DNA from: Actinomycetes bacterium
Lineage (GTDB): Bacteria; Actinomycetota; Acidimicrobiia; Spongiisociales; JAHEDJ01
DNA: 64,000 nucleotides
Direction: 5' to 3'
Assembly (NCBI GenBank): GCA_024641245.1
Contig: JAHEDK010000002.1
Coordinates: 167,136 to 231,135 of the forward strand
Below are positions 34,102 through 64,000 of the stretch, piece by piece. Both the position numbers and the translations under genes were made by a program. Within the stretch, counting starts at the first letter, position 1. Each line of letters opens with the position of its first letter. The notes under the pieces were generated by a model. That model was not told where the DNA came from and did no database searches. It saw nothing but the letters and a program-made list of their open reading frames with translations.

Positions 34102-34584
34102 GTGGCAGGAATGAGCCGTCGGACTTTCTTGAGTCGCGCCACCGCGTCGATTGTCGGCGGGATCGGCGCGCTGATGGGCATCCCCACGGTTGCCTATCTC
34201 ATTTCTCCTGCCAAGGCTCGCGGTGGTCTTGGAGTCGAGGCGATCCCGCTCGGGCCTACCAACAAAGTGCCAATCGGGGAACCCACCCTCTTCAAAGCAA
34301 CCATCGAGCGCAAGACCGGATGGGTCACGCAGGCCGAAGAGCTCGCCTTCTACGTCTTCACAGAAGACGGGCGCAACTTCACGGCACTGTCCAACGTTTG
34401 CACGCACCTTGGCTGCCGGGTGCGGTGGGTCGGCAACGAGAAACAGTTCTTCTGCCCTTGCCACAATGCCGTCTTCACCGAAACCGGGAAAGTGGTTTCG
34501 GGCCCACCGCCCAGAGCCCTAGACCAGTACGAGCTGTCGGTTGAAGGTGACCAGTTGTTCGTCGTCGGGAAGGTCGAAGCATGA
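34102..34584 (+). CDS. qcrA: Rieske [2Fe-2S] subunit, complex 1 (Tat signal)
   Basis: Twin-arginine signal MSRRTFLSRA. The Rieske boxes are CTHLGC and CPCHNAVF. Confidence 0.9.
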   Translation: MAGMSRRTFLSRATASIVGGIGALMGIPTVAYLISPAKARGGLGVEAIPLGPTNKVPIGEPTLFKATIERKTGWVTQAEELAFYVFTEDGRNFTALSNVCTHLGCRVRWVGNEKQFFCPCHNAVFTETGKVVSGPPPRALDQYELSVEGDQLFVVGKVEA

Positions 34585-35270
34585 TCCAGAAGCTCAGTGC
34601 TTGGTTCGAAGAGCGGATGGGATGGAAGCCGATCTGGACGGCACTGGCGCTCCGCAACATCCCCAAGGTCAACTGGCTGTACACGCTGGGCAGCGCCACG
34701 CTCCTCGTCACAGTGAACCAGATTCTGACCGGCATCCTCCTCACCATCTACTACGTCCCCAGCCCTCAGGATGCCTACAACAGCGTTGCCTTCATAACGA
34801 ACGAGATCACTGCCGGCTGGCTCATCAGAGGGCTGCATCATTGGGGTGCCAGTGCGATGGTCGTCCTGGCCGGACTCCACATGCTGCGGGTGGTCTTCCA
34901 CGGCGCCTATAAGTTCCCCCGCGAAATCACCTGGTTCACCGGACTCGGCCTCCTGGCCGTGACGATGGCCTTCGGATTCACCGGGTACTTGCTGCCGTGG
35001 GATCAGAAGGCTTACTGGGCTACCACGGTGGGTACCCGAATGCTGGAGGTGACACCCGTCATCGGTGATTGGCTGCTCCGGATCGCCCGCGGTGGGGAAG
35101 AGCTGTCGGCCGTGACGCTCACCCGGTTCTACGGAACCCATGTATGGGTGCTCCCGTCGGTGCTCCTGCTACTCCTGGGTATCCACCTCTTTCTGGTCGT
35201 CCGCGTCGGCATCAGCGCACCTCCGACACCCAAGGAGACAGACGAGAAGCCCAAAGTGTGGTTCGAATAA
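34581..35270 (+). CDS. qcrB: cytochrome b6-type subunit, complex 1 (four-helix, split cytochrome b)
   Basis: The haem ligand pairs are LHHWGASAMVVLAGLH (i/i+14) and THVWVLPSVLLLLLGIH (i/i+15), as in b6/Bacillus QcrB. Overlaps the Rieske gene by 4 bp. Confidence 0.9.
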   Translation: MIQKLSAWFEERMGWKPIWTALALRNIPKVNWLYTLGSATLLVTVNQILTGILLTIYYVPSPQDAYNSVAFITNEITAGWLIRGLHHWGASAMVVLAGLHMLRVVFHGAYKFPREITWFTGLGLLAVTMAFGFTGYLLPWDQKAYWATTVGTRMLEVTPVIGDWLLRIARGGEELSAVTLTRFYGTHVWVLPSVLLLLLGIHLFLVVRVGISAPPTPKETDEKPKVWFE

Positions 35271-37669
35271 TGAAACGCGAAGAACGCTCCAAATACCTCG
35301 AGGAGTACGCAGAGGACAAGAAGAAGGGCATCCCGTTCTTCCCGGACGCCGTGTTCAAGGACGTCCTGGTTGCATTGATCGTGTTGATCATTCTCATCGG
35401 CCTCGCCTACTTCGCAGGCGCCCCGCTCGAAGAACGTGCGAATCCATCCGACAGCGACTACACACCTCGACCGGAGTGGTACTTCCTCTGGCTCTTCCAA
35501 CTGCTCAAGTACTTTCCGGGCAACCTCGAGTTCGTCGGCGTCATCCTCCTGCCTGCCCTCGGATTCGCCATCCTCTTCGCCATGCCGTACCTGGACAGGA
35601 CCAAGCTCCGTCACTTCCGCAACCGCAGTTGGGTGATGGCATCAACCGGCGTCGCCGTGGTAGCCATGGGGTTTCTCACAGTCCAATCCATCAGGGAGAC
35701 CCCGGCGCCGGCCGACGTGAGCGGCACCATCAACGCCGCCGTTCTCTTCACCGAGAATTGCTCCGTATGCCACGGCACATCGATCGATGTCCCGACCGGG
35801 ATAAACCTGCATGAGACGATTGCCGGGGGTCACGAGGGGATGCCGGCCTTCGCAGCCACTCTGTCGACCGATGAAATCGATGCCCTCGCAGGATTCCTGG
35901 TCTCTCCGCAGGGAGGGGCGATATTCACCGCCAACTGCGCGGCATGCCACGATTCGAGTGACCTCGCCGCCGCCACCCCGTTCCAGCTCCAGGACGCCCT
36001 GAATCAAGGCACCGCCTACGCGCCGCATGATGGACTCGACATACCCGACTGGTCCGAGGTCCTCTTCGGCCAGGATCGAACCGCGCTCCTCAACTTCTTG
36101 CTTGCTCCGGACGGCCAGCGCCTCTACACGCTCTACTGCTCCGAATGTCACGGAACCTCGATCAGCTGGGAAGGGGAACGAGACGAACTCGAAGCGCTCA
36201 TCCGCCAGGGCGGCAACCACCTCGAGATGACCCAGTGGAGGGACGTGCTGCCGGAGGACCAGATCACCGAACTCGCTCTGTTCGTCGTCGAACCATCCAC
36301 GGCTCCCGGGGGCGAGCAACTGTTTGCACAGCACTGCTCGAGTTGTCACGGCGTGCGGGTGCCGAGCGCTCCCGACATAGAAACCGCCTACAACATCATC
36401 GCCGACGGTGCAGAGCACCGATCGATGCCTGTCTGGGGCGACGTTCTCACCGAGGAGCAGCTAACCGCACTCACAACCTACACGCTCGAAGCCAGTCGCG
36501 GCACACCGGTCATCGTCGGCCAGCAACTGTTCGGTCAATTGTGCTCGTCGTGCCACGGTGACTTCGGTGAAGGCGGCCCGAACCCCGCCGACCCCATCAG
36601 AATCATCCCTCCGATCAGTACGGCGAGCTATTTGGAGACCCGGGACGACGCCACGTTGCGCGCCATCATCTCAAAGGGTCAGTCGGACCAGGGCATGTCG
36701 CCTTTCCTGGAGAGCGAAGGTGGACCGCTGACCGAGGACGAGGTGAATGCCGTGGTTGCGTTCCTCCGTTCGTGGGAATCGGATCCGCCGGTCGATTTGC
36801 CGCCCGATCTTGCCCGTGGACCCGTCGCGGGTGGAAGCGTGCAGGTGTATGCGGCGTTCTGCGCCCAATGCCACGGAGCAGATGGGGCAGGCGGCCCCGA
36901 TTTGGTCGGTCCTTCCTTGACCTCGGCAGAATTCCAGGATTCCTTCACCGATGAGCAACTGCACGAGGCCATCGACCTCGGCCATGCTGCTACTTCGATG
37001 ATCGCCTGGGGCGAGGTCCTCACCGCCGATCAGATCCAGGGACTCGTCGACCACATCCGCTCGCTGGGCGGACGCGGTACCCTGCAGACGATCGTCTACG
37101 AACGCGACATTGCTCCGATCTTCCAGGCGTCTTGCGCCGGTTGCCACGGGTCGTCGGGGGGTTGGGATGCATCCACCATGGAGTCCGTGATCGGCAGCGG
37201 AAGCAGCGGGCCGGCCGTCGTCGCCGGCGATCCCGACGGGAGTCATCTCGTGCAGCGCCTTCGTGGCGAGGGCAACTTGATGCCCCCGGCCGGAGCGCTG
37301 CCGGACAACCAACTCGATCTGATCGTGCAATGGATTGCCGGGGGAGCAACCGCCGAAGTGACAACAGGCGACGCGCAATCCGGCGGCGGCGACATCGGTG
37401 ATTACACGTGGACGAAGGATGTCCAGCCGATCCTGCAGGCCAGTTGCGCGGCCTGCCACGGATCGTCCGGGGGTTGGTACGCGGGGACGTACAGCTCCAC
37501 GATCAACAGCGGCGACAGCGGTCCGGCCGTCGTCCCTGGGAATGCCGACGACAGTTCGATGATCCAACGACTGCTCGGCAACGGCAACCTGATGCCGCCG
37601 GGAGCTCCGCTTTCGGAAGAACAGATCGCCGTCCTGATCTACTGGGTCAACAGCGGCGCCAAGGAATAG
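35270..37669 (+). CDS. qcrC: subunit IV (cytochrome b C-terminal, PEWY) fused to eight cytochrome c domains (six class-I-like plus two PSCyt1-like)
   Basis: ATG 35270 overlaps the cytochrome b TAA stop. The N-terminus has three TM helices with RPEWYFLWLFQLLKYF. Eight CXXCH motifs follow: CSVCH, CAACH, CSECH, CSSCH, CSSCH, CAQCH, CAGCH, CAACH. The last two domains have the 'planctomycete cytochrome c' pattern (CxxCHG...GPAVV.G.....S.L.QRL......MPP...L....I..WI..GA). Confidence 0.85.
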   Translation: MKREERSKYLEEYAEDKKKGIPFFPDAVFKDVLVALIVLIILIGLAYFAGAPLEERANPSDSDYTPRPEWYFLWLFQLLKYFPGNLEFVGVILLPALGFAILFAMPYLDRTKLRHFRNRSWVMASTGVAVVAMGFLTVQSIRETPAPADVSGTINAAVLFTENCSVCHGTSIDVPTGINLHETIAGGHEGMPAFAATLSTDEIDALAGFLVSPQGGAIFTANCAACHDSSDLAAATPFQLQDALNQGTAYAPHDGLDIPDWSEVLFGQDRTALLNFLLAPDGQRLYTLYCSECHGTSISWEGERDELEALIRQGGNHLEMTQWRDVLPEDQITELALFVVEPSTAPGGEQLFAQHCSSCHGVRVPSAPDIETAYNIIADGAEHRSMPVWGDVLTEEQLTALTTYTLEASRGTPVIVGQQLFGQLCSSCHGDFGEGGPNPADPIRIIPPISTASYLETRDDATLRAIISKGQSDQGMSPFLESEGGPLTEDEVNAVVAFLRSWESDPPVDLPPDLARGPVAGGSVQVYAAFCAQCHGADGAGGPDLVGPSLTSAEFQDSFTDEQLHEAIDLGHAATSMIAWGEVLTADQIQGLVDHIRSLGGRGTLQTIVYERDIAPIFQASCAGCHGSSGGWDASTMESVIGSGSSGPAVVAGDPDGSHLVQRLRGEGNLMPPAGALPDNQLDLIVQWIAGGATAEVTTGDAQSGGGDIGDYTWTKDVQPILQASCAACHGSSGGWYAGTYSSTINSGDSGPAVVPGNADDSSMIQRLLGNGNLMPPGAPLSEEQIAVLIYWVNSGAKE

Positions 37670-37811: not shown

Positions 37812-39608
37812 ATGGAGAAACTTCACTTCTTCGACGAGAACATCCCCTGTCTCGCCGCCTGTCCGGTCAACACGAATGCCGGCATGTACGTTGCCGCCAT
37901 CGCAGACGGACAGGATGAACTGGCCTATCTAACCGCTCGCCTCCCCAACCCGTTCGCCTCCGTCTGCGGTCGGGTTTGTGCGGCGCCATGCGAGGACGCC
38001 TGTCGGCGCGGCGAAATCGACAAGCCCATCGCCATCCGGGCGCTCAAGCGATTCGTCACCGATCAATTCGGCGTCGAATCCGGCATGGATACCTACCGGC
38101 AGGTCGCCGCCCCTGCTCTCGAGTCGCGATCACAAAGCGTCGGGATTGTCGGAGGGGGCCCGGCCGGCCTGGCCGCCGCCCACGACCTCCGCCGCCTCGG
38201 CTACGGCGTCACGCTGTACGAAGCCACCGGTCAGCTCGGCGGCATGATGCTGCTGGGGATCCCCGAGTACCGCCTTGATCGATCCCTCCTGGCGGCGGAG
38301 ATCAAGGCCATCACCGACCTGGGCGTCGAGGTTCGGTTGAACACGAAACTCGGCGATGGCATCACGCTCGATGACCTCCGCCGGCAGCACGATGCCCTAT
38401 TCGTGGCCATCGGGGCGACCCTCGGACGCGGACTCGACCTCGAAGGCCACGACGCAGACGGGGTGTTGAAGGCGATCGAGTACCTGATCAACGCCAACCA
38501 GGGGTTCGCAACCGACGTCGGTCAGAAGGTGGTCGTAATCGGTGGCGGCGACGTGGCGATGGATGCAGCAAGGACCGCGCTACGAGCTGCAACCTACGAT
38601 GAGATCGCCCGCCGCCATGCCGAATACGACGAAGAGGACGGGCGCTCATCCATGACGGAAGCCCTCGACGTGGCTCGCACGGCTGCCCGGACTGGTGCTC
38701 AGGACATAACCATCATGTCACTCGAGGCCAAACACGAGATGCCGGCGTCGGAGTTCGAGGTCGAAGAGGCCGAGCACGAGGACATCAAGTTTGTCAACCG
38801 GCGCGGTCCCGCCCGGATACTCACCGCCGATGGCAAGGTCACCGGCATCGAGACGATCGGGGTCACGCGCGTTTTCGACGAGAACGGCCGGTTCTCCCCT
38901 GAATTCGACGATGCAGATCGGCTGACGCTGGAGGCAGACACCATCATCATGGCTATCGGCCAGGCGATCGATGTTGAGGCACTGGGAGCGAACGGCCCTG
39001 AGTTGAGTCCTCGCAAGACAATCCAAGTGGGTGAGGACAGCCTGGCGACTTCGCTTCCGATGGTATGGGCCGGCGGCGATGCAGCCAGGGGCCCGCGCAC
39101 TCTCATCGATGCGATCGCAGACGGCCGGATTGCGGCCCGTGAGATCCACGAGGCGTTTGGCGGCAGCTTCGCCGAGCAGGATACCGGAACCATGGTGCAA
39201 CTGGACCAGTTCCACCGTCTCGACGACATCTACGACCGGGTCCCCCGGGTCGCCGTGCCCACGCTGCCGACGGACCGGCGCATCGGTCTGGCAGAAGTCG
39301 AAACAGGGTTCACCGTCGAAGAGGCCAGGTGTGAGGCACAGAGGTGTCTGCGCTGCTTCGCCAACATCCTGCTCGATACCGACATTTGTGTTTTATGCGC
39401 GCTGTGCGCCGACGTCTGCCCGCTCGACCTGATTTCGCTGGTTCCCTCGGAGGACATTCACCCAGACGAGCCGGGTGGCACGGCGTTAATGTTGAACGAG
39501 CAAAGCTGCATCCGTTGCGCGCTGTGTATTGAGCGATGCCCGACAGATGCACTGTCGATGGGACTGTGGACCGGAGTGGGAGTGCCGAAATTGGGAGCAC
39601 CGGTATGA
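37812..39608 (+). CDS. GltD-like FAD/NAD(P)-binding Fe-S oxidoreductase with C-terminal 2x[4Fe-4S] ferredoxin domain
   Basis: N-terminal GltD-type cluster region (CLAACPVNTN...FASVCGRVCAAPCEDACRR). Dinucleotide folds VGIVGGGPAGLAAA and VVVIGGGDVAMDAA. C-terminal CLRC...CVLCALCADVCP...CIRCALCIERCP. Confidence 0.85.
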   Translation: MEKLHFFDENIPCLAACPVNTNAGMYVAAIADGQDELAYLTARLPNPFASVCGRVCAAPCEDACRRGEIDKPIAIRALKRFVTDQFGVESGMDTYRQVAAPALESRSQSVGIVGGGPAGLAAAHDLRRLGYGVTLYEATGQLGGMMLLGIPEYRLDRSLLAAEIKAITDLGVEVRLNTKLGDGITLDDLRRQHDALFVAIGATLGRGLDLEGHDADGVLKAIEYLINANQGFATDVGQKVVVIGGGDVAMDAARTALRAATYDEIARRHAEYDEEDGRSSMTEALDVARTAARTGAQDITIMSLEAKHEMPASEFEVEEAEHEDIKFVNRRGPARILTADGKVTGIETIGVTRVFDENGRFSPEFDDADRLTLEADTIIMAIGQAIDVEALGANGPELSPRKTIQVGEDSLATSLPMVWAGGDAARGPRTLIDAIADGRIAAREIHEAFGGSFAEQDTGTMVQLDQFHRLDDIYDRVPRVAVPTLPTDRRIGLAEVETGFTVEEARCEAQRCLRCFANILLDTDICVLCALCADVCPLDLISLVPSEDIHPDEPGGTALMLNEQSCIRCALCIERCPTDALSMGLWTGVGVPKLGAPV

Positions 39609-40342
39609 CATTGGGCCAACGAATCCGCGAAAGCACGATAGGTCGTTCGATCTGGCGCGCCACCGACCGAACCACCGAACGCGACCAGGCGGCCGGTCAC
39701 TGGGCGAACTTCTTTCTGCACATCTACCCGGTGAAAGTGCGCAAGAAGGAGATCACGTTCCGCTATTCCTGGTATCTAGGTGTGGCGTCGGTGGTCCTGT
39801 TCGGATCGCTGATCGTTTCGGGCATCTACCTGATGTTCTTCTACGTCCCGTCGCCTGCCCAGGCCTACGGCGACATCCTCAACCTGCAAACGCGGGTCGC
39901 GTTCGGACAGTACATCCGCAACGTGCACCGCTGGTCGGCTCACCTCATGGTGCTGGTGGTGGCCGCGCACATGGCCCGGGTGTTTTATCGAGGGGCATAC
40001 AAGAAACCCCGCGAATTCAACTGGGGTATCGGCGTGATCCTCCTCGTGCTCACGCTGCTCCTTTCGTTCACCGGCTACCTGCTCCCCTGGGACCAGCTCG
40101 CCTACTGGGCGGTCACGGTCGGCACCGAGATGGCCGCCTTCGTCCCGCTGATCGGGGACACCGTCAAGGAAATGATGCTGGGTGGGCCGGTGGTTGCTTC
40201 GTCGACGCTGCTGCGGTTCTACGTTCTGCATGTCGCCGTTCTGCCCACGGCTGTCGTTCTCCTCATCACAATCCATATGTGGAGATGGCGCAAAGACAGC
40301 ATGCTCGACGCGGCGAAGGAGGGTGTTGATGTCGACGCCTAG
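39605..40342 (+). CDS. cytochrome b6-type subunit, complex 2
   Basis: ATGA overlap with the oxidoreductase gene. The His pairs are VHRWSAHLMVLVVAAH (i/i+14) and LHVAVLPTAVVLLITIH (i/i+15). Confidence 0.9.
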   Translation: MTLGQRIRESTIGRSIWRATDRTTERDQAAGHWANFFLHIYPVKVRKKEITFRYSWYLGVASVVLFGSLIVSGIYLMFFYVPSPAQAYGDILNLQTRVAFGQYIRNVHRWSAHLMVLVVAAHMARVFYRGAYKKPREFNWGIGVILLVLTLLLSFTGYLLPWDQLAYWAVTVGTEMAAFVPLIGDTVKEMMLGGPVVASSTLLRFYVLHVAVLPTAVVLLITIHMWRWRKDSMLDAAKEGVDVDA

Positions 40343-40865
40343 ACCAGATCAGGAAAATCCTGAGATCGTCGCCGGACAACGGGTGCTCGGGGTTGTTCCA
40401 GGCAAGCCGCCGGGCGGCGACCGCAAGGTTCTGAGCGAGCAGGAACCGGTCATGGTCTGGCCGCACCTACTCGTCCGCCACGGGGTGGCGGCGCTGGTGG
40501 TCATCGCCGTCGTTCTGGTGCTTGCCATATTCTTCGATGCCCCGCTGCGTGAGATCGCCAACCCCACGCTGACGCCCAACCCGGAAAAGGCCCCCTGGTA
40601 TTTCGCGGCGCTCCAGGAGCTGCTCTCGATGTTCCATCCGCTGGTGGCCGGTGTGCTGGTCCCGGGCGCCATCGTCCTCGGGCTCTTCGCGCTTCCGTAT
40701 GTGGATCGGACTTCGACGATCGAGCCGCGGTTCCGCAAGGTGGCGGTGGCGACGTTCACGATCTTCATGGTCGTGTGGATAGTCCTGACGGTTATCGGAT
40801 TCGCCTTCCGCGGCCCCAACTGGGGTTGGGTGTGGCCATGGCAAGAGTGGTACGGAGAGCTATGA
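40329..40865 (+). CDS. subunit IV-like (cytochrome b C-terminal) protein, complex 2
   Basis: Three TM helices. EKAPWYFAALQELLSMF aligns with the PEWY region, so the motif reads APWY here. I prefer ATG 40329 inside the track ORF. Confidence 0.8.
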   Translation: MSTPRPDQENPEIVAGQRVLGVVPGKPPGGDRKVLSEQEPVMVWPHLLVRHGVAALVVIAVVLVLAIFFDAPLREIANPTLTPNPEKAPWYFAALQELLSMFHPLVAGVLVPGAIVLGLFALPYVDRTSTIEPRFRKVAVATFTIFMVVWIVLTVIGFAFRGPNWGWVWPWQEWYGEL

Positions 40866-41368
40866 GCAACGGAATCGGTCGGAGAGAATTCCTATCCCGG
40901 GCCTGGAAGTGGGGTGCCGCCCTCATCGGTGTCGCCGGCGGTTGGACCACGTGGGATATCCTGCAGCCCCGGGTCACCGGAGGCTTTGGTGGCGTCATCA
41001 AGACCAAGGCAGCCGACACAGTGCCGGACACCAACGTCGAATCCATCCGGGCCGCCAGAACCTACCTGACGAAGATCGACGGGCAGGTTGTAGCCCTCTC
41101 CGAGAAATGCCCGCACCTCGGTTGCCGGGTGCCGTGGTGTGATTCGTCCGGACAGTTCGAGTGCCCGTGCCACGGCTCGGTCTTCAACCGGGCGGGCGAG
41201 TACCGCGCAGGGCCCGCTCCCCGCGGAATGGACCGCTACGAGTTCGAGACGATCGACGGCATCGTCTACGTAGACACCGGAGCACCGGTATCCGGGCCGG
41301 CAATCGGTGTGGAGACCCTCAACGAACCCGTACGAGGGCCATCGTGTGAGGACAGCTCCCATGGGTGA
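40862..41368 (+). CDS. Rieske [2Fe-2S] subunit, complex 2 (Tat signal)
   Basis: GRREFLSRAWKWG Tat-like signal. The Rieske boxes are CPHLGCRV and CPCHGSVF. ATGA overlap with the preceding gene. Confidence 0.9.
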   Translation: MSNGIGRREFLSRAWKWGAALIGVAGGWTTWDILQPRVTGGFGGVIKTKAADTVPDTNVESIRAARTYLTKIDGQVVALSEKCPHLGCRVPWCDSSGQFECPCHGSVFNRAGEYRAGPAPRGMDRYEFETIDGIVYVDTGAPVSGPAIGVETLNEPVRGPSCEDSSHG

Positions 41369-42371: not shown

Positions 42372-42372
42372 G

Positions 42373-53935: not shown

Positions 53936-54249
53936 TTCACCCTCCTCCCGATCGGGCGCTAGCCCGACGTCATGGGAGCCGACCGCTCCCTCCAGTCCCT
54001 TTCCAAACCGTTCCCCGTGCCGCCCTGCGACTCGGGGTGCCCAATCAACGATCAGGATAATCAGACCTTTTAGGTCAAAATATGCCGATAGCACTTGGCG
54101 TATTCATCACTCTATGTGTTTGTCGACACGGCGTCAAGTTGGAGAAGGGCCCCATAACGACAGGGCCGTTCGGCCCTATCAACGAGGCACACCGCACTAC
54201 CGAAATCGGCCGGAACAGGTATTATTTATCTCAGGGTGGCGGAGGATAA

Positions 54250-55752: not shown

Positions 55753-55936
55753 TGACAGACCCGACCTCCATCACCCGGCGAATGCCATTGGGCCCTACAG
55801 GACACAATTCGACCGCGGGTACCGTCGCGTTAGGACCCGCGGGTGCTGTCAGGAACCGCGGATTGGGCCACATGGGAGAGAGGCGAGGGCCCGCAATGGT
55901 TTGTGAATGCCGTGAGTGGTCGAGAGGGGGCCCACG

Positions 55937-56362: not shown

Positions 56363-56423
56363 GCGTGTATTACCTGGGGACCATTGCGGCCTATAGCGCA
56401 CCCCATCTCGTCGGGTTTTCGCG

Positions 56424-57296
56424 ATGAAGCGACGAACCCAGCTTTACGCGCTCGGCGGACTCCTCATTGTTGTTTCGTTTGCCGCCTGGCGGTTGACGGA
56501 CGATCCGGCAATCGAACCACCGCTGATCCCGATCGCAGCAACCGCCGTGGTCGCAGACTCCGACTTCGACGCGTGCCTCGAGTGCCACGACGACATCGAG
56601 CAATCCCTCCAAGCCGGACTGGTGCAACTCATCGGATTTCGACACGAAGAGCACTTCTCGAATTCCGGCGACGTCGGTTGCGGCAACTGCCACGGTCTCG
56701 ACACGCACGATCGCACCCCGCCGCAGGCACCGACCATGGAGGATTGTTTTTCGTGCCACCTCGACGCCGGGCCGGCTGCCGAGTTGCCGTGTCTCCGCTG
56801 TCACGACAACGCCACTGTGCCACCGCCGCAGAGCCACTTCACCTCAGAGTGGCGCGACGTTCACGGCTCCGGCGCCCTGCTCAGCCAGTCGCTGTGCGAG
56901 ACCTGCCACTCGCGACAAGATTTCTGCACGGCGTGCCACGGTGTCGATATTCCGCATCCAGACGGATGGACCGGCTATCCACACGCACGTGCGACGTTCG
57001 ATTCGGGCATCGAGTCGTGTGCACGCTGCCACGAGCGCGGTCCGGAACTGACGGCTCGCGACGAATGTGACGGCTGCCACCATCCGCAGAACCCCGCAGA
57101 ACCCATCTGGAAGGATGCTCACCCAGAGGTGGTCCGAAGCCAGGGTGGCTCGACGTGCTTCGAGTGCCACGACCCCAACACATGCGCCACATGTCACACA
57201 TCGGGAGTTGAAGACTTCTCCGCCGATCTCAACCGGCTCGAAGTGCCCGGCCCACCAAAGGTCACGGAGTCACCGCCCGAGGACGGTGACTCGTGA
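56424..57296 (+). CDS. membrane-anchored decahaem cytochrome c
   Basis: N-terminal TM helix (LYALGGLLIVVSFAAW) and ten CXXCH motifs in 290 aa. Contains the repeated module CxxCH-x3-4-CxxCHG.DIPHPD.W. Confidence 0.85.
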   Translation: MKRRTQLYALGGLLIVVSFAAWRLTDDPAIEPPLIPIAATAVVADSDFDACLECHDDIEQSLQAGLVQLIGFRHEEHFSNSGDVGCGNCHGLDTHDRTPPQAPTMEDCFSCHLDAGPAAELPCLRCHDNATVPPPQSHFTSEWRDVHGSGALLSQSLCETCHSRQDFCTACHGVDIPHPDGWTGYPHARATFDSGIESCARCHERGPELTARDECDGCHHPQNPAEPIWKDAHPEVVRSQGGSTCFECHDPNTCATCHTSGVEDFSADLNRLEVPGPPKVTESPPEDGDS

Positions 57297-58309
57297 GTCT
57301 GTCCCCGGTACCCATCGGACCGGCGGGACGCTCGCCCGGAATCCCATTCCCGGCACCACCGACCGCCCTCCGGCGATTCTCAACGCAACCACCGCCACCT
57401 CCCGACGGCGAGCCATCTCGCCGTCCCGAGCTTCGTGCCCTCGGTGACGGGGCGGGCTCGGGAAGGGACAACAGGGCATCGGAGCCACGCGGGTCTCGCT
57501 GGCTTCGGCGCCTCGTCATCATCGTCGCGACCGTCGGCGCCCTCGTATTCGTCGCCTCCTGGAGCTACGCCTCGTCATCGCGCAACATGTGCGGAAGCTG
57601 TCATAGCGTCTCGGCGGCTGCAGAATCCGCCGGTGATTCGGTGCACGCAGATATCCCGTGCCTCGCCTGCCACAGGCAAGCGGGCATCGTCGGAGCGTTC
57701 ACCTACCTCCCTGTGCTGCTGCGCGAGTCTGTTCACGAGCTGACTGGACTCTCTATCGCCGAAGGAGTGCTCGACCCCGTCGGATGTGGTTCTTGTCACT
57801 CTTTCCTATCCGACGCGGCGGCGCGAGGCGATCATCCGGACGAGACAGCAGAATGCTCGTCCTGCCACGGCAACGTAGCCCACCCGGGAGCCGGGACGGC
57901 TCCGGAAGGGGACGGCCATCCGTCCGGGTTCTTCGCTTTCCACGGCCGGGATTCCGTCGCTTCGCCCGGATCATGCGCAGAATGCCATAAGAACGACTTC
58001 TGCTCGGCCTGCCACTTCCGCACGGAGTATCCGCATCCGGAAACCTGGACGTCGCTCCATGGTCCGGCGTCAATCGAAGGCGGCCCCGCTGCTTGTGTGA
58101 TGTGCCACGAGCCCACGTACTGTTCGAGCTGTCACGGCGCCGACATCCCCCATCCGGACAACTGGTTCGAGATCCATCATCGGGCAACCGACCCGGCAGT
58201 CGGGTCGGCCTGCCTATCGTGCCATGCAGCCTCCGAGTGCTCCTCCTGCCACGTCCGGCACTCAGTTCACAACGAGCAAGGGCTCTACCAGTGGGACCTC
58301 AAGCCATGA
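57293..58309 (+). CDS. membrane-anchored decahaem cytochrome c with Pro/Arg-rich cytoplasmic N-terminus (NapC/NirT-like layout)
   Basis: 4-bp overlap with the upstream gene. The TM helix LVIIVATVGALVFVASW is followed almost immediately by the first haem motif (SSSRNMCGSCHS). Ten CXXCH motifs in total. Confidence 0.85.
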   Translation: MSLSPVPIGPAGRSPGIPFPAPPTALRRFSTQPPPPPDGEPSRRPELRALGDGAGSGRDNRASEPRGSRWLRRLVIIVATVGALVFVASWSYASSSRNMCGSCHSVSAAAESAGDSVHADIPCLACHRQAGIVGAFTYLPVLLRESVHELTGLSIAEGVLDPVGCGSCHSFLSDAAARGDHPDETAECSSCHGNVAHPGAGTAPEGDGHPSGFFAFHGRDSVASPGSCAECHKNDFCSACHFRTEYPHPETWTSLHGPASIEGGPAACVMCHEPTYCSSCHGADIPHPDNWFEIHHRATDPAVGSACLSCHAASECSSCHVRHSVHNEQGLYQWDLKP

Positions 58310-59157
58310 AAGGCATCCGGGTGCTCATGACTGTGGTCCTCACTCTCGTACTCGCTGAGGTGACGCTCGTGGCCTTCGTGACCTTCTCCGAGGATGCCCG
58401 GGGCGCGGTCACCGACGCGTGGGCCAAGACCGTGAACGCGTGGGCCGGCTCGGAGGAGCGGGCAGGCAATTTCGAGCTGCTCCTGTCGTCTGCAGACGAG
58501 TTCGCTGCTGAATGGGTCCAGCCATTGTGGAGCGCGCCGGAGGCGGCTCCGGCCGGCACCGGATTCTCCGAATGCGTGACCTGCCACACGGATTACGCCG
58601 AACGTCGCCTGTTCACCGGCGTCTTCATGAATCATCCACTGCATTCGGAGTTGGGAATCGCGTGCGCCGAATGCCACACCGACGTTGCGCATCCCCTCCC
58701 TCTCCCTCCGGCCGAAGAGACTTGTGCAGGGTGCCACAATCAAGTCGAACGAGACGGCCCGGCCTCCGACTGTAGCTATTGCCACAAACCTGGCTCGCTG
58801 GCGCACTATCAGTCACTTGGCGTTCCCGACGGAGCCGCCAACTGCAGCACCTGCCACCTTCCGGATTCGTTCGGGCACACCGATCAGCACGCCTTGACGG
58901 TTACTCCAAGCTTCGATGGAACCGATTCCGCCGTCTGCCTCAACTGCCATCAGGCGGCCGCCTGCGCTCGATGCCATGATTCCTCCCACCCGGCCGACTG
59001 GGTATCCCTTCACGGCGCAGAGGTCCAGGACGCCGGTACCGGCGCCGGCTCCTGCGCGGCGTGTCATTCGACAAACTGGTGCGCTGGAGCCTGCCACCTG
59101 AGTGGAACTCTCCAGGGCGGCAGGCTGCTCCCCCTACCGATCGGAGACGATGACTGA
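58306..59157 (+). CDS. membrane-anchored octahaem cytochrome c (plus one CX3CH motif)
   Basis: ATGA overlap, with ATG 58306 inside the longer track ORF. N-terminal TM helix. Eight CXXCH motifs and a C-terminal CAGACH. Confidence 0.85.
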   Translation: MKGIRVLMTVVLTLVLAEVTLVAFVTFSEDARGAVTDAWAKTVNAWAGSEERAGNFELLLSSADEFAAEWVQPLWSAPEAAPAGTGFSECVTCHTDYAERRLFTGVFMNHPLHSELGIACAECHTDVAHPLPLPPAEETCAGCHNQVERDGPASDCSYCHKPGSLAHYQSLGVPDGAANCSTCHLPDSFGHTDQHALTVTPSFDGTDSAVCLNCHQAAACARCHDSSHPADWVSLHGAEVQDAGTGAGSCAACHSTNWCAGACHLSGTLQGGRLLPLPIGDDD

Positions 59158-59819
59158 TGGCGAATCGACGAACCTTGCTCGTGCTCGTGGGCACGATCGG
59201 TGCGGTGGCAGCTGCTGCGGCCATCTGGATCGTAGGCGGCGCCGATCCGGATCCACTCATCGCCGAGGTGGATGGGATTCCGATCCGGCAATCACAAGCG
59301 GACTCGCGGATTGAAGGCATCGCCTCGATTCACGGCGACATCACGACGACGCTCGGTAGCGAGTGGAGAGCCACCGTGCTGCAGTCCCTCGTCGATGACG
59401 TGATCGTTCAGATCGAAGCCGACCGGAGATCCCTCGAACCGACCGATGCCGATCTCGAACAAGCAGTCGCCGATACCAAGGCAATGGTGGGTACCGATGC
59501 GGACTGGGAGATCTGGCTTACGGACCAGGGGCTCGACGACGAGGAAGTTGAGCGGCGCCTGACCACCCAGATCAGGACCAACCGTGTGTACGACGCGGTC
59601 ACCGCCGATGTGACTATCGCGCGCACCGACCTCGAGGCCTACTACGAGGCGAACCTCGACCAGTTCACCGTCGACGGCGCCGTCAGAGAACTCTCCGAGG
59701 TCGAAGAGCAAATCAAGGTGGCCGTTGAAAGCATGATGCGAGATCGCGTCTACGCCGAGTGGATCGACGCCCGCCGGGCCGAAGTCATCCTGGAGGTGGT
59801 GCACGATGACTGGCGATAG
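59157..59819 (+). CDS. membrane-anchored SurA-N-terminal-like chaperone domain protein (no PPIase domain seen)
   Basis: TGATG overlap with the octahaem gene. A TM anchor is followed by IAEVDGIPIRQSQADSRIEGI..., resembling SurA_N/PrsA N-domains. The call is tentative. Confidence 0.5.
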   Translation: MANRRTLLVLVGTIGAVAAAAAIWIVGGADPDPLIAEVDGIPIRQSQADSRIEGIASIHGDITTTLGSEWRATVLQSLVDDVIVQIEADRRSLEPTDADLEQAVADTKAMVGTDADWEIWLTDQGLDDEEVERRLTTQIRTNRVYDAVTADVTIARTDLEAYYEANLDQFTVDGAVRELSEVEEQIKVAVESMMRDRVYAEWIDARRAEVILEVVHDDWR

Positions 59820-60480
59820 GCAACCCGCCGACAGGGAGCAGAATGTCAACGTCCTCCTGGTCATTGTCGGCTTGTTGACGCTCCTCGTGGTCGGGCTCGG
59901 TGCAGCCGTTGTCTTCATCCAACTCAACTCCGATCCGGTCCCCCAGACGGTTGCCGAACGGGACCTCAATCTCTGGCTGCGCCTCGCCGACGACAATCCT
60001 GATGCCGTATGGGCACAGGTCGGCCTGGGGCAAGCACACCTGGCAGGCCAGGATATGGAGGCCGCCCGGGCTGCCTTCGCAGCGGCCCTGGCCATCGATC
60101 CGGCTTCGCCGGAAGCACTGTTCCAGATGGGGCTCCTCGTCCGAGCAGAGGATCCGAATCTGGCCGTCGATTACCTTCGGCGAGCCGTCGAAGCCGCAAC
60201 GGGAGCAGACAAGGCGCGCCCGAACCTGGCGCTCGGAGATCTTCTGATGGAGCGAGGCGACTGGGAAGCGGCGCGGCTGGCCTATGAGTCGTCCATAGCC
60301 AATCTCCCCTTCCTATTGCCCGCGCACCTGGGACTTGCCCGGTCCCTCGAAGCGCTCGGTGACTCCGACGGTGCCCTTGCCGCCTACCTCCAGGCCTCGG
60401 CCTTCGATCCGACGGATCCCGAGATCAAGGAGGCGATCACTCGCCTCGGAGGCACCCAACCCGAGACAACGAACCCGTAG
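59806..60480 (+). CDS. membrane-anchored TPR repeat protein
   Basis: TM helix followed by TPR-like repeats (AQVGLGQAHLAGQDMEAARAAFAAALAIDP..., LALGDLLMERGDWEAARLAYESSI..., HLGLARSLEALGDSDGALAAYLQASAFDP). Confidence 0.7.
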   Translation: MTGDRQPADREQNVNVLLVIVGLLTLLVVGLGAAVVFIQLNSDPVPQTVAERDLNLWLRLADDNPDAVWAQVGLGQAHLAGQDMEAARAAFAAALAIDPASPEALFQMGLLVRAEDPNLAVDYLRRAVEAATGADKARPNLALGDLLMERGDWEAARLAYESSIANLPFLLPAHLGLARSLEALGDSDGALAAYLQASAFDPTDPEIKEAITRLGGTQPETTNP

Positions 60481-60488
60481 GAGCACCG

Positions 60489-61655
60489 ATGGACAGACCA
60501 CCACCAGGACCGATTGCGCACCAGCCACCGCCGTCTCCAGCGCCGGAATCGGGCAATGCCACCCAGACCACTCGCCGCCTAATGATCGGCATGATCATCG
60601 TGCTGTCACTCGCTGCCATCGGCCTGCTCATCCTCCTCCTGTTGCTCCTTCGATCCGGGGAGGAGCCCCAGTCGCTGGCGATGCCCGACGATTGCCCGCT
60701 CGACATCTCCCGCTCGGTATACGGATACGGAGCGGAGTTGGATCAGTTGCTCAACAAGCCGCTGGCCGTCACATTCGACGGCAGTGAGAACCTCTGGGTC
60801 TCCGATACCGGGAACGGGCGGGTCCTGGCACTCGACACCGATGGGAACCTTCTCAGAATCATCGGCACCGAGGAGGGGGCCGGCCGAATGTTCAGCCCGT
60901 ATGGCCTCGCCTTCGATGAGACCTACCAACGGCTCTACGTTGCCGACTGGACAGCCCGATTCGTGTTCATCTATTCGCCGGACGGGCGGTACATCGAGCG
61001 CATACCCGCAGATGACCAGGATTTGACGATCTTCGGCGAAGCCGGGTTCACGCCGTTCCATGTCGAGGTATGGGGGGCGCAGATAATCGTCTCCAGCAAC
61101 GATGGGCTGTATTTCTTCGACCGGGCGGGGCATGTCACCGACCACTGGGGCCAACGTGGGGCTGAGGCCGGGGAGTTTGCGTTCCCCGATGCCTTCGACA
61201 TCGACCGCACCGCCGGAACGTTCTACGTCGCGGACACTCTCAATCGTCGGGTCGTCGCACTCGATTCCGCAGGCGAAGTCCTGTGGATCTCCGGCCGGCC
61301 AGACCAGGCAGGGGCAATCACCGGGTTCTGGCAGCTCCCGCGGTCTATCACCGTCGGGCAGGACGGAAATGTGTACGTCGTCGACACATTCAGGGCGCAG
61401 GAGAAGTGCTCCGGGATGGGACACGTTGTGGTGCTCGATCCCGGCGGCGAACTCGTCTCCGAATTTGGAGCGGCCGGCAGCCAGGAATGGGCGTTCAGTT
61501 TCCCGGAGAAGCTCGCAATCGGTCCAAACGGTACATTCGGGCTCGCTGACCGAGAAAAGGGTCGCGTGGTGGTGTTCGACGTTGGACAGCTTCCACCGGC
61601 CGACGAGTCCGAGGCGGACAAGTACCTGCAATCGTTCACCCGCTTCGATGATTGA
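60489..61655 (+). CDS. membrane-anchored NHL-repeat beta-propeller protein
   Basis: TM helix followed by about six NHL-like repeats (PLAVTFDGSENLWVSDTGNGRVLALD, PYGLAFDETYQRLYVADW, PDAFDIDRTAGTFYVADTLNRRVVALD, PRSITVGQDGNVYVVDT, PEKLAIGPNGTFGLADREKGRVVVFD). Confidence 0.8.
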   Translation: MDRPPPGPIAHQPPPSPAPESGNATQTTRRLMIGMIIVLSLAAIGLLILLLLLLRSGEEPQSLAMPDDCPLDISRSVYGYGAELDQLLNKPLAVTFDGSENLWVSDTGNGRVLALDTDGNLLRIIGTEEGAGRMFSPYGLAFDETYQRLYVADWTARFVFIYSPDGRYIERIPADDQDLTIFGEAGFTPFHVEVWGAQIIVSSNDGLYFFDRAGHVTDHWGQRGAEAGEFAFPDAFDIDRTAGTFYVADTLNRRVVALDSAGEVLWISGRPDQAGAITGFWQLPRSITVGQDGNVYVVDTFRAQEKCSGMGHVVVLDPGGELVSEFGAAGSQEWAFSFPEKLAIGPNGTFGLADREKGRVVVFDVGQLPPADESEADKYLQSFTRFDD

Positions 61656-61799: not shown

Positions 61800-62909
61800 A
61801 TGCGCACCAAGCTGCAAGGGTTCGCTCTGTGGGGGATGCTGTTCTTTGCCGTCGTCGGACTCACGGCCCTGTCGGCCGACCCGGCCTCAGCGCAGGATTC
61901 CGCCGACTCGGAAGTCAACAACTACTGCCTGGGATGCCACGAATCCGGGAACATCATTCTCACGTTCCCGTCGGGGGAGATGCTTCCCGCCGTGGTGCCG
62001 CGTACCGTTTTCGACGCCTCTATCCACGGTCAGGTCGGCCTCACCTGCATCGCCTGTCATACCGATATCGGGCAGTACCCACACGACCCCATGTCGGCCG
62101 TCACCCGGCGAGACCTGGCGATCGAGTTGTACACCACGTGCTTCAACTGCCACGAGAGCGAATACACCGACACGCTCGACAACATGCACACCGAAGCTCT
62201 CGCCGGCGGCAACCGGGAAGCCGCCGTCTGCACCGACTGCCACGGCGCTCACAACGTCACCCACCCCAGCGTCGACACAACGGCCATCCCGCGCACCTGC
62301 CGGAACTGCCACTCCGAGATCTACGACCTGTACGCCGGCAGCATCCACGGTGCCGCCCTACTCGAACACGACAATCAGGACGTTCCAAGCTGCACGAGTT
62401 GTCACGGCGTCCACAGTGTTGAAGGACCCTCGCACTCGCAATTCCACCTGTTCTCACCGAAAATCTGCGAGGACTGCCACGCCGATGAAGCTCTCATGGG
62501 CAAGTACGGGATCAGCACGGCGGTCTTCGACACCTACGTAGCCGATTTCCACGGCACGACGGTCATGCTCTTCGAGGAACTGGCGCCCGACCAGAAGACC
62601 AACTCGCCGGTCTGTATCGACTGCCACGGCGTGCACAACATCCTGGCCGCCAACGAGGTCGACTCGACCGTCTACAAGGAGAACCTGCTCCTCACCTGTC
62701 AGCGGTGCCACCCAGACGCCACCGCCAACTTCCCCGACTCGTGGATGAAGCACTACCAACCGACCTCCGACCAGGCGGTCCTTGTCTGGCTGGTCAATTG
62801 GTTCTACCGACTCGTCATCCCCGGCGTCGTGGGGGGCATGCTCGTCTGGGTGACGATCGACGGCATTCGCCACTTGCAGCATCGACGGAAGGCGGCCGAG
62901 AGTGTCTGA
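61800..62909 (+). CDS. nonahaem cytochrome c with signal peptide and C-terminal TM anchor
   Basis: Nine CXXCH motifs: CLGCH, CIACH, CFNCH, CTDCH, CRNCH, CTSCH, CEDCH, CIDCH, CQRCH. The C-terminal helix is LVIPGVVGGMLVWVTIDGI. Confidence 0.85.
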   Translation: MRTKLQGFALWGMLFFAVVGLTALSADPASAQDSADSEVNNYCLGCHESGNIILTFPSGEMLPAVVPRTVFDASIHGQVGLTCIACHTDIGQYPHDPMSAVTRRDLAIELYTTCFNCHESEYTDTLDNMHTEALAGGNREAAVCTDCHGAHNVTHPSVDTTAIPRTCRNCHSEIYDLYAGSIHGAALLEHDNQDVPSCTSCHGVHSVEGPSHSQFHLFSPKICEDCHADEALMGKYGISTAVFDTYVADFHGTTVMLFEELAPDQKTNSPVCIDCHGVHNILAANEVDSTVYKENLLLTCQRCHPDATANFPDSWMKHYQPTSDQAVLVWLVNWFYRLVIPGVVGGMLVWVTIDGIRHLQHRRKAAESV

Positions 62910-64000
62910 CGTCCTTGAGCGCGCAGCAGTCGACGTCGAACTGGACGATCGGATACTGCGTTTTGGAAAGGCGGATCGCATCGAGCATGCGGTCCAGGTA
63001 ATCAGCTTCGCCGGCCTCGGCCTCACTGGGCTGATCCAGAAGTTCTTCGAGTCGGCGATTTCTCAGTGGTGGATTGAGTTCCTTGGTGGGTTGCCACAGG
63101 TGCGCGTCATTCATCGCTGGCTGGCGACCATCCTCATGCTCGCCGTCATCTGGCACTTCGGTAAAGCCGGATATCGCACGTACGTCGAACGGCGACCGCG
63201 AGCCATGGTCCCGAGCAAGCGCGACTGGATTGCCATCAAGGAATCGATCGCGGTGCTGGCGGGACGGCGTCACGAACCTGTGAAACAAGGTCGATTCACG
63301 TTCGCGGAGAAGGTCGAGTACTGGTCGTTCGTCTGGGGCACCGTCTTGATGATCGCCACCGGCTATATGCTGTGGAACCCGATTTCCACCGCCAAGTTCC
63401 TCCCCGGTGATTTCATCCCGGCCGCCAAAGCGGCACACGGTGGAGAAGCGATCCTGGCTGTGCTGGCCATCCTCGTCTGGCACATCTACCACGTGCACAT
63501 CAAGCATTTCAACAAGAGCATCTTCACCGGCTACATCAGCCGGGCAGAGATGATCGAAGAACATGGCCTCGAACTCGAGGCGATGGAGGCGGGCAAGACC
63601 GGTCCGCAGGCGACACAAGCCGAGATTGTGGAGCGGCGGCGCAAGTTCCTTCCCGCCTTCGGTGTTGTGGCGGTCCTCATGATGGCCGGCATCTACTGGT
63701 TCGTGAGCTTCGAGGATACGTCGATCGCCACCATCGAGCCCATCGAAAACGTGGTGGCATACAAGCCACTGCCTCCTGAACAGCAGAGCGGCCCGGCGCT
63801 TTCTGGTGACAATCCGCTCCCGACCATCGTCATCCCCGACACCACCCTCCCCACCGAGACGACGGTGCCGCAGGGTGAAGTCACATGGGCCACGGTTGGG
63901 CCCGTTCTGGCCGATAGCTGCGGTACGTGCCATTCGGCCTCGAACTCCATGGGCGGGCTCGACCTTTCGTCGTACGAGGGGGCGCTGGGTTCCGAGGGAG
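62902..64000 (+). CDS. FdnI/HydC-type dihaem cytochrome b fused to a C-terminal PSCyt1-like cytochrome c domain; 3' end outside the window; absent from the ORF track
   Basis: My own translation of frame 1 from GTG 62902, which overlaps the nonahaem stop by 8 nt: VSDVLERAAVDVELDDRILRFGKADRIEHAVQVISFAGLGLTGLIQKF...IHRWLATILMLAVIWHF...FTFAEKVEYWSFVWGTVLMIATGYMLW...AAHGGEAILAVLAILVWHIYHVHI...VGPVLADSCGTCHSASNSMGGLDLSSYEGAL. There is no stop up to base 64000. Confidence 0.8.
   Translation, partial: MSDVLERAAVDVELDDRILRFGKADRIEHAVQVISFAGLGLTGLIQKFFESAISQWWIEFLGGLPQVRVIHRWLATILMLAVIWHFGKAGYRTYVERRPRAMVPSKRDWIAIKESIAVLAGRRHEPVKQGRFTFAEKVEYWSFVWGTVLMIATGYMLWNPISTAKFLPGDFIPAAKAAHGGEAILAVLAILVWHIYHVHIKHFNKSIFTGYISRAEMIEEHGLELEAMEAGKTGPQATQAEIVERRRKFLPAFGVVAVLMMAGIYWFVSFEDTSIATIEPIENVVAYKPLPPEQQSGPALSGDNPLPTIVIPDTTLPTETTVPQGEVTWATVGPVLADSCGTCHSASNSMGGLDLSSYEGALGSEG

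Follow-up and report, generated by a model that had tools for sequence, protein, structure and literature searches.

We analysed a 64,000-nucleotide stretch of contig JAHEDK010000002.1 from the actinobacterial assembly GCA_024641245.1 (the whole stretch is called the window below). From position 34,102 to its end, the window is occupied by a haem island of genes for multihaem c-type cytochromes, two Rieske/cytochrome b complexes (R/b-1 and R/b-2), and the System I cytochrome c maturation (Ccm) proteins. The best reading of this island, which we hold with about even confidence, is outward extracellular electron transfer (EET) from the menaquinol pool of a Gram-positive cell through the wall zone to acceptors outside the membrane; Fe(III)/Mn(IV) minerals, humic substances, and other cells would be likely acceptors. 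This reading is supported because haem motifs are much denser than chance would produce and are retained in homologues, because a core set of genes recurs in 10–23 of 46 loci of Chloroflexota and Actinomycetota, and because an accessory cassette keeps its order at 37–56% identity and abuts an R/b-1-type operon in one relative (locus L085; related loci are numbered where they have to be told apart). It is further supported by the homologues of the 11-haem protein, which bear domains of cell-surface type and include distant relatives in Metallumcola and Coriobacteriia, and by the placement of the host in Acidimicrobiia together with the lack of a porin gene.

A six-frame scan of the window yielded 79 CXXCH motifs; they span positions 35,759 to 63,919, and the first 35.7 kb lacks the motif in every frame. 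All 79 are in frame with long open reading frames (ORFs) and lie inside real genes, while in 100 first-order Markov simulations of the window the chance expectation is 3.1 ± 1.8 and no run exceeds 9. This total and every count per gene agree with those of the initial annotation, and Pfam and NCBIfam likewise bear out nine multihaem genes, two Rieske/cytochrome b operons, and a full CcmA–I set. Topology was assigned by a hydropathy and lipobox scan, in which the lipobox, signal peptides, and transmembrane anchors put every cytochrome outside the membrane, in the lipoprotein, membrane-anchored, and secreted architectures described earlier. The genes with haem motifs are the following:

35270–37669 (+): subunit IV (PetD-like, three transmembrane segments) with eight class-I monohaem c domains, 8 CXXCH (R/b-1)
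41361–41825 (+): membrane-anchored monohaem class-I cytochrome c of R/b-2, N-terminal transmembrane segment, Pfam Cytochrome_CBB3/Cytochrom_C, 1 CXXCH
48795–49484 (+): pentahaem cytochrome, signal peptide and C-terminal transmembrane anchor, 5 CXXCH
49626–51698 (+): decahaem lipoprotein, lipobox, 10 CXXCH
52940–54094 (−): secreted hexahaem cytochrome, Pfam Paired_CXXCH_1, 6 CXXCH
54250–55752 (+): secreted 11-haem cytochrome of an Actinomycetota-centred family, four Paired_CXXCH_1 stretches, 11 CXXCH
56,424–57,296 (+): first decahaem cytochrome, N-terminal transmembrane anchor, 10 CXXCH
57,293–58,309 (+): second decahaem cytochrome, N-terminal transmembrane anchor, NrfH/NapC-like N-terminus, 10 CXXCH
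58,306–59,157 (+): octahaem cytochrome, N-terminal transmembrane anchor, 8 CXXCH
61800–62909 (+): nonahaem cytochrome, MtrA/DmsE/NrfB-like, signal peptide and C-terminal transmembrane anchor, 9 CXXCH
62902–64000 (+): FdnI/HydC-type dihaem cytochrome b (b561) with two PSCyt1 monohaem c domains, at least 1 CXXCH, Pfam Ni_hydr_CYTB E 2e-12

The last of these genes is cut by the window end, and the island runs past position 64,000, as had been supposed: in the Logan contig L002 the gene encodes 500 amino acids with two PSCyt1 haems, which gives it a second CXXCH. In the relatives L057 (76% identical), L009, L021, and L041 it is followed by a convergent NapC-like multihaem gene. Because of this gene end in L002 and of the NapC-like gene after b561 in relatives, the whole island very probably holds about 88 haem motifs, by extrapolation from these contigs. 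The system had been called complete and self-contained. The first term reaches further than the window does, since the conserved NapC-like heptahaem partner falls past the window end and no terminal enzyme is in view. As for the second, several entry points to the quinone pool are indeed present, but the island is mosaic, with four components: a core cassette, an Actinomycetota-specific 10-gene insert, the R/b-2 operon, and the Ccm genes.

Acidimicrobiia is a Gram-positive class, and the Actinomycetota placement on which the earlier interpretation depended is well founded: cluster mates more than 90% identical carry the name 'MAG: Acidimicrobiia bacterium' (MAG, metagenome-assembled genome), and genes upstream of the island, assigned by Pfam/NCBIfam to PRK14109-type GlnE and to DUF2017, are consistent with Actinomycetota. 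The core genes are 55–70% identical to genes of Chloroflexota, as would be expected if the island were a binning or assembly chimera in which cytochrome genes of a diderm or of Chloroflexota had been joined to an actinobacterial contig. We consider this extremely improbable. The G+C content is flat across the window (0.61–0.65), the Acidimicrobiia-typical R/b-2 operon sits within the island, and the core cassette also occurs on other Actinomycetota contigs of 0.3–0.7 Mb. Moreover, Logan assemblies made independently from five runs show this gene order, as do a JGI contig and two further Acidimicrobiia MAGs at NCBI, which makes an assembly chimera unlikely.

The core cassette is common to many Chloroflexota and Actinomycetota at 45–70% identity. 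Its composition was counted by tblastn of 46 loci and by ORF clustering; the counts are lower bounds, many contigs being short. The nonahaem and b561 genes are linked to the decahaem lipoprotein gene in 22–23 of the 46 loci, R/b-1 with its multi-c subunit IV in 10–12, and Ccm genes lie near it in up to 17. A NapC-like protein of six to seven haems, which ends in a PSCyt1 domain in the one read from L031, is encoded beside the b561 gene in 20 of the 46. Three Actinomycetota loci (L009, L021, L041) hold R/b-1, ccm, lipoprotein, nonahaem, b561, and the convergent NapC-like gene contiguously. Actinomycetota copies of the NapC-like gene are 59–65% identical to each other; copies lie at 2536–3462 (−) in L057, 15148–16728 (−) in L021, and 16563–18215 (−) in L007. 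It should be noted that one site of the L021 copy is CGEACH, a CX3CH motif.

The decahaem lipoprotein is a tandem duplicate of a pentahaem module of about 315 amino acids, the two halves being 45% identical (E 4e-89). In 40 homologues all ten CXXCH motifs are invariant, and each module has, besides its five motifs, six invariant non-motif His residues, which would leave room for all-bis-His ligation. When its AlphaFold model, with a mean predicted local distance difference test (pLDDT) score of 81, was compared with the PDB by Foldseek, OcwA of Thermincola (6i5b) ranked first, followed by the undecahaem S-layer cytochrome of Carboxydothermus (6qvm) and by NrfA. Thus, at the level of fold the lipoprotein belongs with the NrfA/OTR-derived multihaem proteins, as do OcwA-like surface reductases, and it is closest in structure to both solved Gram-positive surface reductases. 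A PDB sequence search with the lipoprotein gave no meaningful relative and no OcwA homology at the sequence level. About 35 residues after the lipobox Cys (49690–49790) form a Thr/Pro/Ala-rich low-complexity linker with pLDDT below 50, which may be a glycosylated spacer raising the haem domains above the membrane. The neighbouring pentahaem cytochrome is a shortened paralogue of the nonahaem protein (32% identity, E 2e-24).

The lipoprotein family comprises at least 4,998 homologues, and most of those listed are 55–70% identical. A scan with one genome per species found homologues in 48 loci, mostly of Chloroflexota (Anaerolineae, Caldilineae, Promineifilaceae, Ardenticatenaceae); outside this phylum, six are from Acidimicrobiia and other Actinomycetota and one each from Trueperaceae, Aminicenantes, and Spirochaetales. 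The most divergent homologues (42–45% identity) are those of L042–L051, from Anaerolineaceae and one Spirochaetales locus, in which the b561 module is replaced by an adjacent conserved gene for a multi-transmembrane protein with a C-terminal FAD/NAD-binding-like region (for example, L044 11067–12404); by eye its product looks like a membrane flavocytochrome of the ferric-reductase/NOX type. In 10–13 relatives the lipoprotein gene adjoins a multihaem–NrfC–NrfD module, that is, a multihaem protein with a 4Fe-4S protein and a quinol-interacting membrane protein (L007 7192–9944, L008 18812–21835, L011 5273–8281). This module is absent from the window, where the pentahaem gene fills its place.

The strong conservation of the lipoprotein and its NrfA-type fold would also suit an extracytoplasmic and not extracellular system, in which the quinol dehydrogenases would feed the lipoprotein, here an NrfA/octahaem-reductase superfamily enzyme that reduces or oxidises a soluble wall-zone compound such as nitrite, hydroxylamine, NO, sulfite, tetrathionate, or peroxide. 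We find this quite unlikely. The lipoprotein contains CXXCH alone and no variant haem motif (CXXCK etc.), each module having the five motifs and six invariant His noted above. In NCBIfam, the hidden Markov models (HMMs) of NrfA and of octahaem nitrite or hydroxylamine reductases give 17–24 bits against cut-offs of 166–400, and no protein of the island reaches the curated cut-offs of NrfA, NrfB, NrfH, DmsE, OmcA/MtrC, HmcA, or hydrazine synthase. Such a reading would also leave about 60 further haems, in anchored and secreted proteins, unexplained. With scores so far under the family cut-offs, orthology of the cytochromes to nitrite, hydroxylamine, sulfite, or hydrazine enzymes was rejected, and their separation from the characterised nitrite, hydroxylamine, and sulfite reductases holds.

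The nonahaem and b561 genes, which overlap by 8 nt, are the second element of the core. The nonahaem protein matches PDB 6r2q_A (E 2e-7), an entry that is presumably the MtrCAB complex, although it is listed under an odd molecule name, and b561 scores 55 bits on the NCBIfam FdnI model, below its cut-off. A DmsE-type decahaem protein would score above 192 on TIGR03508, carry ten haems, and have a partner barrel; here the nonahaem protein reaches 51 bits, the best score in the island is the 58 bits of the 11-haem protein, and there is no barrel gene. A porin–cytochrome conduit (MtrCAB/Pcc) was rejected in general, as Pfam and NCBIfam gave zero matches to beta-barrel families among all genes from 34,102 to 64,000, as the initial annotation had noted from the sequence. 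A close likeness is Geobacter CbcL, in which a nonahaem c part is fused to a HydC/FdnI dihaem b part. The building blocks are the same, but here they are split into two polypeptides, and the cytochrome b has two extra PSCyt1 domains. Together, the NrfH-, MtrA/DmsE-, and FdnI-like similarities of the island proteins point to roles as quinol dehydrogenases and wires, and we regard these roles as putative.

The third element, R/b-1, opens the island, with the multi-c subunit IV gene listed above preceded by two genes:

34102–34584 (+): Rieske 2Fe-2S protein 1, twin-arginine signal-anchor, Pfam Rieske E 1e-12
34581–35270 (+): cytochrome b 1, b6-type (four-helix), Pfam Cytochrome_B E 7e-50

Rieske protein 1 is 49–60% identical to Rieske proteins encoded beside the decahaem lipoprotein in other genomes, and cytochrome b 1 is 64–78% identical to Chloroflexota and Actinomycetota homologues. 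The gene at 35270 had been counted as an octahaem cytochrome; the count stands, but the multihaem fold does not, since Pfam finds Cytochrom_B_C, seven Cytochrome_CBB3 stretches, and two PSCyt1 domains (these being the last two c domains), that is, subunit IV followed by eight separate class-I monohaem domains. A reading of the sequence places Met at the expected sixth-ligand position in seven of the eight. R/b-1 resembles the b6c complexes of Firmicutes and heliobacteria, with subunit IV fused to c-type haem domains and a split cytochrome b. Those complexes carry one or two c domains against the eight here, and unlike in b6c, no Cys for haem ci is read in the N-terminus of the R/b-1 cytochrome b.

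Eight class-I, probably high-potential c domains raise the question of direction. The same hardware could work inward or in both directions, with extracellular Fe(II), reduced minerals, humics, or partner cells supplying electrons that enter at the outer cytochromes and pass downhill through the His/Met c chain to an oxidase or N-oxide reductase, and uphill through R/b-1 or b561 to quinones. PSCyt1 domains in three core membrane proteins (the subunit IV with eight c domains, b561, and the NapC-like heptahaem protein) suggest a common high-potential exchange point for such flow, and R/b-1 is linked both to the lipoprotein, in the 10–12 loci counted above, and to the accessory cassette in L085. 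The Uet cluster, with the same peptidyl-prolyl isomerase (PPIase), NHL, and TPR accessories, is an electron-uptake system (10.1101/2022.05.06.490989), and Ardenticatena, a monoderm member of the Chloroflexota, performs both anodic and cathodic EET (PMC5808234). Nevertheless, genes for Cyc2, cupredoxins, carbon fixation, or an oxidase are absent from the window, the best-documented role of NrfH/CymA-like and CbcL-like modules is quinol oxidation, and the closest folds are those of reductases. On balance, we consider inward or bidirectional flow rather unlikely.

In the window, the lipoprotein gene is separated from the nonahaem gene by an insert of about 10 kb (51,797–61,655), the accessory cassette. 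Besides the five cytochrome genes from 52940 to 59,157, it consists of the following:

51797–52912 (−): AbiEi/DUF559-like gene, Pfam AbiEi_1, MTES_1575, DUF559
55916–56362 (+): Rrf2-family regulator, Cys-rich, Pfam Rrf2 E 3e-27
59,157–59,819 (+): SurA_N-like chaperone, N-terminal transmembrane segment, Pfam SurA_N_3
59,806–60,480 (+): TPR protein, N-terminal transmembrane segment, Pfam TPR
60,489–61,655 (+): NHL beta-propeller protein, N-terminal transmembrane segment, Pfam NHL

The insert genes from hexahaem through NHL are collinear at 37–56% identity in the Actinomycetota MAGs L084 and L085. Immediately after the cassette, L085 has an R/b-1-type operon, and the cytochrome b encoded there shares 78% identity with cytochrome b 1. 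The regulator, which probably binds an Fe-S cluster, occupies the same place in L081 and L085 and was not found in L084; the order SurA_N-like, TPR, NHL is the same in all three. The AbiEi/DUF559-like gene stands exactly at the left junction of the insert and is found in none of the 46 related loci. In L081, an 88%-identical relative, the insert flanks are 88–95% identical, while, within the L081 region 4425–11148 (compared with window 56424–61655), the segment from the second decahaem gene through NHL is just 42–55% identical; an ISL3 transposase gene lies between the NHL and nonahaem genes, and the first decahaem gene appears disrupted. This divergent segment between well-conserved flanks, together with the transposase, points to its replacement by recombination.

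Among the cytochromes of the insert, the 11-haem protein belongs to a small family (68 homologues found), many members of which carry C-terminal FlgD_ig, ZU5, or fn3 domains; more remotely related proteins are found in Coriobacteriia, Dehalococcoidia, and Metallumcola, a metal reducer. Among 43 homologues, each of its 11 motifs is either invariant or conserved to at least 90%. It has no PDB sequence match and, with a poor AlphaFold2 model (pLDDT 65), no fold match, so that no likeness to nanowires of the OmcS/OmcE/OmcZ type was seen either by sequence or, with this low-confidence model, by fold. The hexahaem protein is encoded divergently from it and is 37–40% identical to its counterparts in L081, L084, and L085, where the gene always adjoins the 11-haem gene. 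It has no PDB sequence match, and an OmcS-type nanowire identity was rejected at the level of sequence. The three anchored cytochromes (56424–59157) are mutual paralogues encoded by overlapping genes and are kept as a set in L084 and L085. A PDB sequence search with the first decahaem protein gave no meaningful match, and the octahaem protein aligns over a short segment with ActA (alternative complex III; 6lod_A, E 1e-8). The second decahaem protein matches NrfH locally (2j7a_C, E 3.7e-4) and scores 27 bits on TIGR03153 (cut-off 134); it has the N-terminal transmembrane anchor of the NapC/NirT/NrfH/CymA quinol dehydrogenases, followed by a putative NrfH-like tetrahaem region, and differs from NrfH and CymA in its ten haems and in a Pro/Arg-rich N-terminal extension of about 70 amino acids (57293–57510) that is predicted to be cytoplasmic. 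The start codon of this extension may be miscalled.

The scheme for outward EET that we infer, covering haem loading, surface exposure, the order of the partners, the direction of flow, and the substrate, rests on observations of the gene content, of two separately conserved cassettes, of the fold relationship and topology signals, and of the taxon. Quinol would be oxidized at up to three kinds of site: the split CbcL-like module (the nonahaem protein and the FdnI-type cytochrome b, 61,800 to beyond 64,000), the NrfH/CymA-like decahaem protein (57,293), and R/b-1, whose subunit IV carries the eight-domain c chain with probable His/Met ligation. From these sites electrons may be relayed by the membrane-anchored 5-, 8-, and 10-haem cytochromes, and the outermost carriers would be the secreted 6- and 11-haem proteins together with the decahaem lipoprotein, which has the OcwA/NrfA fold. 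System I Ccm would attach more than 80 haems, the SurA_N-like, TPR, and NHL proteins may aid the folding or organisation of the cytochromes, and the Rrf2 regulator would control expression.

Multihaem genes beside PPIase, NHL, and TPR genes form a recurring signature of EET loci (10.1101/2022.05.06.490989; PMC10734462), and EET by monoderms with surface multihaem cytochromes has been described for Thermincola (PMC6703420), Ardenticatena (PMC5808234), and Coriobacteriia OPB41 (PMC9686372; also PMC7399161). The chain of Thermincola potens/T. ferriacetica (ImdcA, PdcA, CwcA, OcwA) and the S-layer cytochrome of Carboxydothermus ferrireducens belong, as here, to monoderms without a porin, and both there and in the island membrane-anchored decahaem cytochromes are combined with secreted or wall cytochromes. 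OcwA, however, is a nonahaem wall protein, while the lipoprotein consists of two tandem pentahaem modules and is held by a lipid anchor; the island also differs from the Thermincola chain in its link to Rieske/cytochrome b, b561, and System I Ccm and in the host phylum. The 74-kDa surface cytochrome of Ardenticatena, ARMA_0580, with seven reported haems, is similar in size to the lipoprotein family (PMC5808234).

Likened by gene content, the Uet cluster of Tenderiales shares with the island multihaem genes, a chaperone of PPIase/SurA type, NHL, TPR, and maturation genes (10.1101/2022.05.06.490989), although it has a beta-barrel porin and a diderm host. NHL proteins also occur in the EET loci of Geobacter and Desulfovibrio ferrophilus. 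Nearer in taxonomy are the Coriobacteriia OPB41 (Parvivirga, Anaerosoma), Actinomycetota with many multihaem genes, one of these organisms being a proven Fe(III) reducer (PMC9686372); Coriobacteriia share distant 11-haem homologues with the island. They belong to another class, their reported clusters are scattered, and no link to Rieske/cytochrome b has been reported. Consequently, the description of the lineage as essentially uncharacterised for such systems is valid for Acidimicrobiia, as far as the searchable literature goes, and too broad for Actinomycetota as a whole, given the cultivated OPB41, which reduce Fe(III) and have multihaem clusters (PMC9686372, PMC7399161).

Several points weigh against outward EET. 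In a monoderm, a lipobox tethers its protein to the membrane and not to the outer surface of the cell, and no known motif for anchoring in the wall is recognised in the secreted 6- and 11-haem proteins. The fold matches of the lipoprotein are weak (TM-scores 0.2–0.3, 14–22% identity), and at 55–70% identity across phyla it is unusually conserved for an electron conduit; since its fold family includes many enzymes (NrfA and octahaem nitrite reductase, ONR), a catalytic role is possible. Rieske/cytochrome b complexes with class-I c domains normally feed high-potential acceptors, and because of the c domains of R/b-1, O2, N-oxides, Mn(IV), or reverse flow from Fe(II) fit better than low-potential Fe(III) oxides. 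Finally, hosts of the core cassette often come from activated sludge and soil, where it could serve general respiration.

The second Rieske/cytochrome b operon, whose monohaem c gene is listed above, is composed as follows:

37812–39608 (+): GltD-like cytoplasmic FAD/NAD(P) oxidoreductase with Fer4_20 and two [4Fe-4S] clusters, Pfam Pyr_redox_2, Fer4_20, Fer4
39536–40342 (+): cytochrome b 2, b6-type, Pfam Cytochrome_B E 5e-44
40326–40865 (+): subunit IV 2, Pfam Cytochrom_B_C E 6e-12 on the ORF 40,182–40,865
40775–41368 (+): Rieske protein 2, 63% identical to L082, Pfam Rieske E 2e-11

The Rieske protein, the b6-type cytochrome b, and a separate subunit IV thus each occur twice in the island, above the Pfam gathering scores. 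The oxidoreductase gene is the first of the R/b-2 operon and overlaps the gene of cytochrome b 2, the true start of which is probably near 39,602; cytochrome b 2 is 45% identical to cytochrome b 1 and 74% identical to that of L082. The oxidoreductase is 70–98% identical across Acidimicrobiia, and the operon is kept in L082/L083 (7153–12176), where it adjoins a haem-copper oxidase. Another neighbour there is a 756-amino-acid protein whose Pfam matches include cytochrome b, Fer4, FlpD, and cytochrome c. Because the operon is present across Acidimicrobiia and lies beside a haem-copper oxidase in relatives, R/b-2 is probably the ordinary respiratory complex of the lineage and not, as the initial annotation had implied, a dedicated part of the pathway. 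By architecture R/b-2 can be likened to the anammox Rieske/cytochrome b complexes Kuste4569-74 and Kustd1480-85 (cytochrome b 'subfamily G'), which likewise combine a b6-type cytochrome b, subunit IV, Rieske, and an FAD/NAD(P)–Fe-S protein in one operon (PMC12954380, PMC5600118) and for which this architecture has been proposed as an NAD(P)H generator. R/b-2 has, however, a monohaem c where the anammox complexes have a hexa- or octahaem c or HAO-like subunit, and its host is aerobe-like, with the oxidase beside the operon in relatives.

The maturation genes lie between R/b-2 and the pentahaem gene, with those for CcmA to CcmE within 41949–44615 on the minus strand:

44,615–43,878 (−): ccmA, Pfam ABC_tran
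43,881–43,201 (−): ccmB, Pfam CcmB
43,204–42,479 (−): ccmC, Pfam Cytochrom_C_asm
42,486–42,373 (−): ccmD-like, small ORF of 37 amino acids with a single transmembrane segment
42,371–41,949 (−): ccmE, Pfam and NCBIfam
44,805–46,844 (+): ccmF, Pfam CcmF_C E 1e-66
46,753–47,250 (+): ccmH, Pfam CcmH, CPVC motif
47,247–48,080 (+): ccmI-like TPR gene, Pfam TPR
48,077–48,685 (+): ccmG/TlpA-like redoxin, Pfam AhpC-TSA/Redoxin

The ccmD-like and ccmE genes were absent from the earlier list; with them, the System I haem-delivery module CcmABC(D) is present together with the HxxxY motif of CcmE, here HDEQY. Where WCxPC is usual, the active site of CcmG (near 48,355) reads WCIPSC, a CX3C motif. It is WCIPAC in two close relatives from other assemblies, and CXXC is kept in more distant homologues.

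About 22 kb upstream of the island, a gene at 10603–12186 (−) encodes a response regulator with receiver and GGDEF domains, the C-terminal region of which matches the cyclic di-GMP phosphodiesterase part of NosR-family response regulators.

Clusters of multihaem genes have often been reported in uncultured genomes, and Gram-positive EET is established, with molecular detail limited to a few thermophilic Firmicutes. What is new here is the host class, Acidimicrobiia, for which the searchable literature on multihaem cytochromes gave no description of this system; the resolution of the island into two widely conserved, transferable cassettes without a studied member; and the physical linkage of these cassettes to a Rieske/cytochrome b complex with an eight-domain c chain. 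A further proposal, which we put forward as speculative and on the whole unlikely, is that the core cassette is an unrecognised respiratory assembly of monoderms in which a Q-cycle complex is wired directly to the cell exterior. Its parts would be the duplicated-pentahaem lipoprotein, the split CbcL-like module, the NapC-like heptahaem protein, and R/b-1 with its eight-domain His/Met c chain. If true, it would allow energy-conserving exchange with high-potential extracellular partners (Mn(IV), O2-exposed minerals) or uptake of electrons from Fe(II) in thousands of Chloroflexota and Actinomycetota of soil, sludge, and sediment.

Taken together, these results concern a class that is abundant in sediments and soils and that shares one of the cassettes with very many Chloroflexota. 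The link of Rieske/cytochrome b to multihaem conduits, if true, bears on energy conservation in electron transfer of this kind. If architecture reflects function, the cassettes would represent a main route of electron exchange with minerals for the monoderms of soil, sludge, and sediment, and would supply concrete marker genes and targets for expression.

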